In this document: positions 18,467-41,117 of the stretch, one piece after another
Layout of the letters: each line of letters opens with the position of its first letter
How positions within the stretch are numbered: the stretch's first letter is position 1
Origin: a virus
Lineage: Duplodnaviria > Caudoviricetes
Strand: one strand, 5' to 3'
IMG/VR virus record: IMGVR_UViG_3300020045_001891
Coordinates: 1 to 44,364 of that record
DNA: 44,364 nt
Made by a program: the position numbers and the translations under genes
Notes under the pieces: model-generated
The model's database searches: none
Told to the model about the DNA's origin: nothing
Seen by the model: only the letters and a program-made list of their open reading frames with translations

Positions 18467-18519
18467 TCACTATTCGGTTGACAAGGGAAGGTTGTTGGGT
18501 CACTTCAACAGCGTGTTGA
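18467..18519. promoter_or_regulatory. divergent control region with two 15-bp palindromes
   Basis: TCACTATTCGGTTGA 18467-18481 and TCAACAGCGTGTTGA 18505-18519; TTGACA 18478. Confidence 0.65.
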
Positions 18520-18537
18520 AACTAGGGAGTGATTCGA

Positions 18538-19050
18538 ATGCGCAGCGTTACTGACGAAGTTCTGGAAATCGTCCGCGAGATGCCGGGTGTCACATCCGGC
18601 CAGATCATCGAACTCATGCCACACATCACAAAGAAGCAGAGCGTCTACGCGGCGCTGAACAGCCAGTATCTGCGTGGCGTGATTGCTCGCGACACTGCGC
18701 CGCCAGAGGGGAAAGGTCGCCCTGCATTTGCGTGGAAGATGAACCCCGACCCTGCGCAGAAGCCGCCAGTGCGTTCGGTCAGCAGTGGAACTTCGCAGAA
18801 GATCGTCGATACCACGGTGACATCGCTCCGCGCCCAGATCGCAGAACTGGAAGCGTGGAAGGCCGATGCGATTGGTCGGTATCCCGATCTGGCAGTTGAT
18901 GCGATTGTGCTGAAGGCGCGCAGCATCGTTGCTGCGGAACTGCACGACGGTGGTGATTTTGTCGGCTCTGAGGTAGTTCTCGCGGGACACCGAGACACAG
19001 TTTTGGCGATGCGGTTGATGATCCGCGCTTTGGAAGGGGAGTTTGCGTGA
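18538..19050 (+). CDS. putative winged-HTH protein, inverted within tail module
   Basis: TAGGGAG RBS; VLEIVREMPGVTSGQIIE...VYAALNS...GKGRPAFAWK. Confidence 0.7.
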   Translation: MRSVTDEVLEIVREMPGVTSGQIIELMPHITKKQSVYAALNSQYLRGVIARDTAPPEGKGRPAFAWKMNPDPAQKPPVRSVSSGTSQKIVDTTVTSLRAQIAELEAWKADAIGRYPDLAVDAIVLKARSIVAAELHDGGDFVGSEVVLAGHRDTVLAMRLMIRALEGEFA

Positions 19051-19322
19051 TGAGCGGTGGTTGCATTTTCTGCGGGGCTGACATTGTAGCAGAACTCAGA
19101 CTCAAACAGCAGATGGTTCACCAGCCCTACATCAAAGCGATGTACGGGGACGTGGCCGATTGGGCCTACCCGATGCACGCTGACCTGATTGTGGAAACCG
19201 CACTGAAGAAGGCTGCGCGAACGATCAAACAAATGGATCACGACAAAGCGTGGTGTTCCTCTGACGTGGAAGAAGCGTTGAGGCTTTTGCGTGCGGCTGT
19301 CGAGGCTATGAATCCTCAATAA
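19047..19322 (+). CDS. hypothetical protein
   Basis: GGGGAG RBS, GTGA coupling; stop overlaps the convergent gene. Confidence 0.6.
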   Translation: MMSGGCIFCGADIVAELRLKQQMVHQPYIKAMYGDVADWAYPMHADLIVETALKKAARTIKQMDHDKAWCSSDVEEALRLLRAAVEAMNPQ

Positions 19323-40065: not shown

Positions 40066-40358
40066 ACAGACTCATCGTTCACGCGAGGGTCGATGCGCAT
40101 TTGCGGGTATTTCCGCTTCAGGTTTTCTTCGGCCCACTGTTGCCGGATTTTGATGAACTCGGCAGATGCCGACCACTCAACCCGCTGATAATCAGCCGCC
40201 AACTGGTCGTGACTGACGCCCATCGCACTGGCGACCTTTTCGATCAGATCCTTGGCGAACTCCGAAATAGGAAACACGTCAACGCAGTCTCCCACTGGTA
40301 GGATCTGCGGTGCGTCCCCAGTGACATATCCGCCGTCGTGATATTTCTCATCACTCAC
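40062..40358 (-). CDS. small protein containing a portal-like segment
   Basis: ATGA-coupled to terS; VASAMGVSHDQLAADY; start could extend to 40463. Confidence 0.6.
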   Translation of the reverse strand: MSDEKYHDGGYVTGDAPQILPVGDCVDVFPISEFAKDLIEKVASAMGVSHDQLAADYQRVEWSASAEFIKIRQQWAEENLKRKYPQMRIDPRVNDESV

Positions 40359-40456
40359 AAACAGTCTCGATTCCCAATGCTGCCAACTACCATTTGACCA
40401 CGTCTCGAATGAGCCAAAACTCGATCTGAGACGCCATTTTTGGCTTGGCTCCAATT

Positions 40457-40497
40457 TCAACATTCGAGTGATTAGGCGATTAGCGGTTGATGGTCAA
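40457..40497 (-). promoter_or_regulatory. packaging-operon promoter with 15-bp palindrome
   Basis: TTGACC (40497-40492), 17 bp, TAATCA; TCAACATTCGAGTGA 40457-40471. Confidence 0.55.
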
Positions 40498-40612
40498 GCC
40501 CTCGGCGTGGTAGTCAGTGACTCGGTTCAACAACAGCATAGGAGGCGGCGATGAGTCTTTCCCGTAACGAGCGGTAAGGTGGCCGAGTTTCCTTCCCATT
40601 TTCGACAACGCT

Positions 40613-40647
40613 GCCCCGGTTCAGGATTCACCTGTTCTGGGGCTTTT
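40613..40647 (+). terminator. intrinsic terminator
   Basis: GCCCCGG-TT-CAGG-ATTCA-CCTG-TT-CTGGGGC-TTTT. Confidence 0.55.
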
Positions 40648-40657
40648 CACGAATCGG

Positions 40658-40686
40658 TTGACACTCGTTACGTGTTTGGGTAGGTA
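40658..40686 (+). promoter_or_regulatory. sigma70-type promoter for small RNA
   Basis: TTGACA 40658, 17 bp, TAGGTA 40681. Confidence 0.6.
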
Positions 40687-40691
40687 TGCCT

Positions 40692-40775
40692 TGCCCACCA
40701 AGGCCCGACACGCCCTCCCTGTGTTGCGCGGCCTACAGAACCCCCGACGCTCCATTCCCGGCGTCGGGGGTTTTT
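40692..40775 (+). ncRNA. putative ~85-nt sRNA with anti-SD loops
   Basis: own promoter, hairpin with loop GCCCTCCCT, terminator hairpin with loop CCATTCCC and TTTTT; no ORF inside. Confidence 0.55.
40739..40775 (+). terminator. strong intrinsic terminator
   Basis: AACCCCCGACGC / GCGTCGGGGGTT 12-bp stem then T-run. Confidence 0.8.
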
Positions 40776-41044
40776 CATTACATAGGGTAGGAGTGGTGAT
40801 GCGAGCAGACTTAGGTCTGGAATCGGTAGCTGAGCATAGTTGCGTGGTGAGATAGGATCGAGACCCCAGACCACGCCATCGCTCCAACGACACCTTTGCC
40901 TATCGGTCTAGGTGCTATCGAGGCTTTGGCGGCTGTGCCAGTGTGACGAAACAGCCGCCGCCCTACTCCAACATCCCCACAAACCGCCAATCATCAACAG
41001 CATCTGCCACGCCTGCATCAGCGCGCTGGGACACCCTGACACAG

Positions 41045-41100: not shown

Positions 41101-41117
41101 TGGTAGCGGGAGAGGGA
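41101..41117 (-). other. att-like core: isolated tRNA 3' end
   Basis: minus strand TCCCTCTCCCGCTACCA with no T-loop or 5' half upstream. Confidence 0.6.

Follow-up and report, generated by a model that had tools for sequence, protein, structure and literature searches.

A predicted small RNA gene with an anti-Shine-Dalgarno loop and an operator-like promoter site between alpA and int in temperate phages

The alphaproteobacterial RNAs AbcR1 and AbcR2 (alpha-r15) carry a loop seed, CUCCUCCC, which sets a precedent for the mechanism of anti-Shine-Dalgarno (anti-SD) pairing (available part of PMC8844928). RNAs of the cuckoo/ar14 family (Rfam RF02344; CcsR, NfeR1) have adjacent variable-stem hairpins and a C-rich anti-SD loop, according to the accessible sections of PMC4615179, and in the alpha-r8 family (RF00519; SuhB, MmgR, SisA-D) the core UUUCCUCCCU is a single strand of 10 nt after a weak hairpin, as far as the available text of PMC12559287 describes it. 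Among phages, VpdS of VP882 and PreS of lambda are trans-acting sRNAs that favor lytic growth, and the targets given in the accessible portion of the source are host messages and Hfq (PMC12197685). Both are gammaproteobacterial and are unrelated, by the tests run, to the RNA described here. No alphaproteobacterial phage trans-acting sRNA with a known mechanism was found in the literature searched, and to our knowledge few phage trans-acting small RNAs have one.

The locus lies in a stretch of viral DNA of 44,364 bases (the record is 71% complete), which was analyzed at its full length and is called the window below. PHROGs names in the window include terminase, portal, head, tail, thymidylate synthase and sigma factor, and Pfam gives a GapR-like gene. 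Its small terminase matches records of Ruegeria, Rhodobacter and Salmonella phages at 26-37%, which we take to be chi-like from their names. Among complete genomes the nearest relative is G001 (71 kb), which encodes a primase, a polymerase, a helicase, an HTH repressor, a tyrosine integrase and AlpA. Related terminases were found at six loci in bacterial genomes, in prophages of Sphingomonas, Bradyrhizobium, Gemmobacter and Manganibacter; G007, a prophage in a sequenced Sphingomonas isolate, carries a divergent copy of the RNA. A Sphingomonadales host is likely and not necessarily exclusive, because the att core (below) was searched for in the order of G007 alone. The anatomy of the RNA, its conservation, the operator-like site at its promoter and the bias in ribosome-site classes were computed here. 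Within the window, the gene comprises the following features.

40647-40661, no strand: operator-like palindrome TCACG-AATCG-GTTGA (TCACG N5 GTTGA), overlapping the -35 box of P2
40658-40686, plus strand: predicted promoter P2, TTGACA-17-TAGGTA
40693-40775, plus strand: predicted small RNA of ~83 nt (~85), its start placed from the -10 box
40701-40734, plus strand: hairpin 1, with the anti-SD loop CCCUCCC at 40713-40719
40737-40775, plus strand: predicted intrinsic terminator
40783-40796, plus strand: G-rich trailer beginning TAGGGTAG, 3' of the terminator

That this is a real RNA gene is highly likely. The predicted fold reaches -42.0 kcal/mol (z = -5.3), a value not equaled by any of 200 shuffled sequences, and six C/U bases in the loop of hairpin 1 are unpaired with a predicted probability of ~0.9. 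The hairpin at 40701-40734 has the stem and the CCCTCCC loop given in the original prediction, together with a 3-nt bulge at 40727-40729 that had been overlooked; the terminator, described as a 12-bp stem, is present at 40737-40775 but has 15 pairs, G-U pairs included, and the loop CCATTCCC. In the lineage of the window, CCAUUCCC in the loop of the terminator might act as a second seed. The G-rich trailer follows the terminator in six of the seven homologs (window, G001, G002, G004, L166 and G005), and a long ORF downstream of it was seen in G005 only. The G005 trailer is AGGGAGG before an ORF of ~90 codons and matches the G005 terminator loop (L052 1740-1830). On the other strand, the trailer is a C-rich stretch with a hairpin at the 3' end of int, and it scores 24.7 bits in G004 with model R1, which was built from five of the seven copies of the RNA. 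Two candidate ORFs were rejected, one after the terminator (ATG at 40799) for its lack of conservation by eye, the other on the reverse strand behind AGGGAG at 40720, which is present in three of six homologs with unrelated peptides.

Comparison with Rfam, a check proposed with the original prediction, gave no match at gathering level in the window. The best match below threshold was RF02344 (32.5 bits, E = 3.7×10−4, cut-off 58.8 bits), which also scored 28.9 bits in G001 and 21.4 bits in G004 and had no match in G002, G005 and G007. The phage RNA shares with cuckoo/ar14 RNAs the 2-4 adjacent hairpins of variable stem, but none of its loops has the 9-mer CCUCCUCCC found in each hairpin loop of that family, its second loop is often short and not C-rich, part of the RF02344 match falls on promoter DNA, and it is phage-encoded with a phage operator-like site; ar14 itself was absent from all five Sphingomonadales genomes tested. 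With alpha-r8 RNAs, a family that occurs in candidate hosts, it shares a CCUCCCU seed, the arrangement of one seed plus terminator, and a similar length. However, in the phage RNA a strong hairpin presents the seed in its loop: no single-stranded UUUCCUCCCU lies between a weak hairpin and the terminator, CCCUCCC being looped instead, and RF00519 (cut-off 41 bits) gave no match at E ≤ 10 in the window and none in the stretches of G001, G002, G004, G005 and G007. Compared with AbcR1/2, the RNA is shorter and not chromosomal and has no second seed in a linker, so that the two-seed arrangement of loop and linker is absent, and Rfam gave no ar15 match. The int-alpA motif (RF02996, cut-off 35.8 bits) is named after the same gene neighborhood; it was not found in the window and reached 17.1 bits solely on the G005 terminator. 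The RNA appears to work in the manner of AbcR, cuckoo and alpha-r8 RNAs and has the full set of family traits of none of them. It does have the conserved single-stranded C-rich seed of the trans-acting anti-SD working class, in six of the seven homologs by their predicted folds. No description of it was found in the literature, most subscription journals lying outside the search; the gene is very probably real and belongs, as a phage small RNA not described before, to a kind whose way of working is known.

Seven distinct copies of the RNA lie between or beside alpA and int of chi-like alphaproteobacterial phages (in the window, G001, G002, G004, G005, L166 and G007), with identical copies counted once (G003 equals G002, and the RNAs of L061 and L162 equal that of G005). 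Model R1 found the untrained homolog L166 at 36.8 bits, the sole new match above 25 bits among 34 metagenome loci, and missed G007, which was placed by eye from its position and layout. All seven copies have two hairpins, and in six of the predicted folds a hairpin loop exposes CUCCC, compared with 10-25 of 400 shuffles for each; in G005 the motif sits in the second loop. The loops of G007 are UUCACCCCUUU and UGCCCUCUC, the first of which resembles the 16S 3' end itself. The pairs of the hairpin-1 stem differ between homologs, and the 10-nt flanks share 0-9 of 10 bases pairwise. At the terminator, both bases have changed in 5 of 13 pairs, giving a covariation score that no shuffle out of 500 matched and that is inflated by relatedness. 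The anti-SD loops originally proposed are supported at the hairpin (CUCCC in six of seven) and much less so at the terminator, whose loop is C-rich in only four of the seven homologs and is not conserved in G002, G004 and L166. Conservation supports a trans-acting anti-SD small RNA, in that CUCCC stays looped in six of seven copies while the stems change, and we regard trans anti-SD action of the predicted RNA as probable.

Searches for further relatives returned little. The DNA of the element had no match among annotated phages, the 13 weak matches falling on other parts of the query. None of 21 loci from pattern scans of viral contigs was real, and another scan gave two known homologs; one pattern scan yielded 37 loci, six with the module and one of them new (L061), and a further one yielded 12 loci, four known and eight due to chance. 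A scan of genomes with terS found nothing. A host chromosomal homolog was rejected: R1 had matches in 62 of 151 genomes (E ≤ 0.05), the best 20 of which were mostly plain terminators after genes, and none of these 20 had a CCCUCCC hairpin loop. Four host intergenic elements found with R1 (L123, L125, L127 and L140) consist of a hairpin and a terminator with C-run loops; they are possibly undescribed Sphingomonadales RNAs.

The hexamers of P2 are where they had been reported, TTGACA at 40658-40663 and TAGGTA at 40681-40686 with a 17-nt spacer between them. A consensus promoter scan, which accepts only -10 boxes with T as the sixth base, did not pick out P2; its -10 box lacks this final T, as is common in alphaproteobacteria. 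TTGAC is found in all seven homologous promoters and a -10 box starting with TA at 17 nt in four. It had also been stated that this promoter lacks the 15-bp palindrome of the phage (TCAAC-N5-GTTGA, with a TCAC-type half-site variant). This was wrong: TCACG-AATCG-GTTGA at 40647-40661 scores 18.0 and ranks 8 of 44,345 with a matrix trained on 19 other sites, level with those training sites and without an equal in 20 shuffles, only its left half being informative because the right half overlaps the TTGA of any -35 box. Operator-like sites (scores 14.3-18.1) are present at all seven homologous promoters, over the -35 box in five, 3 bp further upstream in L166 and over -10/+1 in G007, and the G005 promoter has a second site over -10/+1. 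These sites contradict the notion of an unrepressed RNA that would form a separate layer of control next to the operators. The same operator-like sites flank the HTH repressor gene of G001 and its early promoters at 62996, 69155 and 69701, the latter in the -35 register of the P2 site; the repressor-gene promoters of G001, G005 and G007 likewise carry a site in this register over the -35 box. Operator-like sites also occur among late genes of the window (14665, 29064, 35855, 35878 and 36493; scores 12.7-18.4), and the protein of the motif may thus act beyond early promoters. Two plus-strand genes that have entered the tail operon (18467-19322) are presumably driven by two such sites and a TTGACA box; for the first of these genes, Pfam and PHROGs gave no match.

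The RNA gene is flanked by the following elements.

40357-40437, minus strand: alpA remnant (excisionase-like), core deleted (tblastn of G001 AlpA, E = 8×10−6; blastn gap)
40457-40497, minus strand: leftward promoter TTGACC-17-TAATCA, reading into alpA and terS
40487-40516, plus strand: candidate promoter P1, TTGATG-18-TAGTCA, placed by eye, back to back with the leftward promoter
40540-40577, plus strand: AGGAGG site and 8-codon mini-ORF of RNA1 (ATG 40551, TAA 40575-40577)
40613-40647, plus strand: predicted RNA1 terminator, hairpin and U run, running into the P2 operator
40963-41025, minus strand: 3'-terminal ~20 codons of a tyrosine integrase gene that is otherwise deleted, from comparison with G001
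41101-41117, minus strand: attP-like core with the sequence of the tRNA-Met(CAT) 3' end, found without mismatch in 24 of the 201 genomes from the order of G007

Upstream of P2 there looks to be a small transcript, RNA1, predicted from a promoter back to back with that of alpA, whose operator at 40457-40471 has matrix rank 4. AGGAGG with an ATG 5-6 nt on is present in all seven homologs, and the ORF has 8-9 codons in six of them and 21 in G007. The RNA1 terminator folds in six of seven despite differing sequence, G007 being the exception. The RNA1 region (40487-40647) also has a C-rich linker, and in some homologs GGCGGCG after the AGGAGG can pair beside or inside the 5' arm of the terminator, which suggests a putative translation-sensing attenuator. 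The RNA1 site was rejected as a target of the RNA (~5 bp of pairing and no cognate preference). G001 has an intact Phage_AlpA and an intact tyrosine integrase of 384 aa; compared with it, the window has lost the core of alpA and all of int but the final codons, and has kept the RNA intact. G004 also has an intact RNA and has lost repressor and int, the repressor gene being deleted between its two operator-like sites (L039 3690-3810); it is a probable virulent derivative. A tRNA-Met was called at three of six loci matching the attP-like core.

The slot that diverges from alpA serves as a cargo site, with operator-like promoters ahead of it, and has other contents in more distant relatives. It holds tRNAs (tRNA-Trp and tRNA-Gly) in L051 (1234-1307) and L053 (5006-5080), a suhB-like RNA in the Bradyrhizobium prophage L093 (20.3 bits, cut-off 41), and, by eye, RNAs with C-rich loops or linkers in L151/L153, L154, L160 and L174; cargo was also located at L144 6500-6850 and L172 5000-5400. 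No RNA of the present kind was seen, by eye and with R1, in L045, L091, L094, L095, L096, L144, L145, L148, L152, L156, L159, L161, L163, L171 and L172. Further contents of the slot are a tRNA-like gene in L166 (4690-4790), long structured non-coding arrays, and an ORF that is presumably RtcB-like. Upstream of the P2 operator, L092 (7690-7710) and L172 (5440-5470) carry a long, perfect stretch of the Shine-Dalgarno type (AAGGAGGTGATC or AAGGGAGGTGATCC), and in G002 (L041 5080-7680) two copies of the operator-promoter of alpA enclose a queuosine/7-deazaguanine-type cluster, with QueE-, QueD- and QueC-like genes by eye.

The loop complement AGGGAG stands 7-10 nt ahead of the start codon in all ten genes for which it had been listed. 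The number of AGGGAG in the window is ordinary (14 seen against 14.7 expected), and only its position is special. Under one gene-calling rule for all sets, which missed some short genes including three of these ten, GGGAG occurs in the ribosome-site window of 32 of 82 early accessory genes (10/28 in the window and 22/54 in G001), 2 of 62 late genes (1/32 and 1/30), and 35 of 625 host genes, a sample drawn from three genomes that carry the att core (17/302, 11/161 and 7/162); the first of these, G076, is one candidate host only (50.5% GC), and two further genomes were added. This bias of early over late and host genes fits the proposal that early phage mRNAs are targets. AGGAG, which pairs fully with the CUCCU tail of host 16S rRNA, is found in 2 of 82 early genes compared with 27 of 302 in G076. 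In three relatives without a visible RNA the counts are 17 of 109 for GGGAG and 14 of 109 for AGGAG (P = 4×10−4, Fisher's exact test against 32/82, which is overstated because the window and G001 represent one lineage and individual phages vary: 10/37 in G211 though no RNA was seen there, 8/38 in G005, and 2/34 in G007 despite its RNA). Median binding of the RNA in the window, counting the opening cost of the RNA and not of the target, is -7.0 kcal/mol for early, -1.4 for late and -1.1 for host genes (151 of the 302), with similar values in G001. Part of this contrast reflects stronger Shine-Dalgarno sites, since the 16S tail also prefers early genes (median -5.9 vs. -3.7 for late genes).

At five of six listed AGGGAG sites, the loop nets -8.3 kcal/mol compared with -5.9 to -6.8 for the 16S tail. 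Of the best four matches in the window, three make no use of AGGGAG, and two of those three pair with the 5' leader of the RNA. The divergent loop of L166 holds CACUCCCU, the complement of AGGGAGUG, which is present at four sites of the window. The 10-nt match reported before gene 4745 is real, with a net energy of -12.1 and 5.1 kcal/mol needed to open a stem, but has no counterpart in G001, G002 and G004; ACACAGGGAG before this gene is the sole such site besides the RNA gene itself. The ribosome sites of int are GAGGGA in G001, GAGGGAG in G002, AAGGGAG in L166 and GGGGAG in G005, so that in four of five int-bearing phages the site pairs over 6-7 bp with the phage's own loop, int of G007 being without such a site. 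The net energy of this pairing drops to -1.6 to -6.5 once target structure is counted, and co-evolution of RNA and int is unproven because the cognate pairing sum ranks only second, and tied, among 24 permutations. Other conserved targets were rejected: the sites of alpA pair poorly with the loops, those of the repressor gene have no GGGAG in G001, G005 and G007 (by eye), and lexA has GGGAG in two of six genomes. No single co-evolving target was demonstrated among the candidates compared.

The explanation that we prefer, on which the balance is about even, is a stand-alone early RNA, gated by the operator, that damps GGGAG-type early and integrase messages. The gene would stand alone in a chi-like temperate phage, and the palindrome in its promoter predicts silencing by the phage repressor, presumably the protein that binds there, and early synthesis after infection or induction. 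The exposed CUCCC(U) loop would then pair with ribosome sites of the GGGAG type and damp translation of early accessory genes and int, sparing late genes largely and affecting a few percent of host messages. With int damped and alpA not, the free, lytic state would be favored; Hfq may assist. Transcription, the protein at the site, repression instead of activation, the help of Hfq and the targets are parts of this scheme that we infer. CUCCC is not necessarily tuned to the phage, because host-type RNAs use the same seed.

The same early RNA may instead be aimed at the host, as a mimic of SuhB/alpha-r8 that represses messages for transport and carbon metabolism, or that competes for Hfq; its fit to phage ribosome sites would then be a side effect. 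The loop and the alpha-r8 core UUUCCUCCCU have CCUCCCU in common (available part of PMC12559287), SuhB is present in all five Sphingomonadales genomes tested, and in Sphingopyxis it represses TonB-dependent receptor and phbB messages, according to the accessible part of a preprint (bioRxiv 10.64898/2025.12.09.693200). Two of the three suhB matches in the host of G007 have a CCUCUCC core, to which the G007 loop UGCCCUCUC is similar, and the Bradyrhizobium prophage has its suhB-like RNA in the same slot. Nevertheless, GGGAG sites occur in merely 4-7% of sampled host genes, TonB-receptor-like genes are not enriched (1/4, P = 0.21, a crude test), and lexA has GGGAG in two of six genomes; we consider a host-directed role unlikely, if worth keeping in mind.

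Rather less probable is an RNA for the maintenance of lysogeny, in which repressor over the -35 box would activate P2, as lambda CI activates at PRM, and the RNA would silence leaky early-gene and int messages in the lysogen. The target bias fits this equally well, the L166 site 3 bp further upstream agrees with it, and activation is a possibility because the promoters of the repressor genes themselves (G001, G005 and G007) show a site in this register. Repression is favored because two homologs, G007 and G005, have sites over -10/+1, because the G001 early promoters share the -35 register, and because the RNA is intact in G004, which is without repressor and int; recent loss of both genes would equally leave the G004 RNA intact. 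Slightly more doubtful still is a purely cis-acting element, a two-way terminator or an antisense transcript that blocks read-through from int into alpA and the late operon, with a loop that has no trans role. The long, nearly symmetric terminator stem would suit it, as would G001 int, which converges on the element and has its stop codon ~80 nt away from the foot of the terminator; but the conserved unpaired CUCCC on a non-conserved stem is left unexplained, U runs in the reverse orientation are 1-3 nt, int is ~370-470 nt away in G002 and L166, and no reverse-strand ORF is conserved.

Newly seen at this locus, relative to the RNAs described before, is the link of such an RNA to the phage operator network and to a bias in ribosome-site class. 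A more far-reaching proposal, tentative and in our view improbable, is that the ribosome sites of early accessory genes and int have shifted from host-style AGGAG to GGGAG, a one-letter address to which the RNA would bind better than the 16S tail. A single RNA under repressor control could then turn off an entire class of phage messages and be both an early-to-late timer and an anti-integration signal, and the shift may expose these genes to host SuhB as a read-out of nutrition. If the preferred explanation is true, a host-style anti-SD RNA within the operator network of a temperate phage would govern the phage's own gene class by the flavor of its ribosome sites, and it would form a post-transcriptional arm of the lysis-lysogeny switch.
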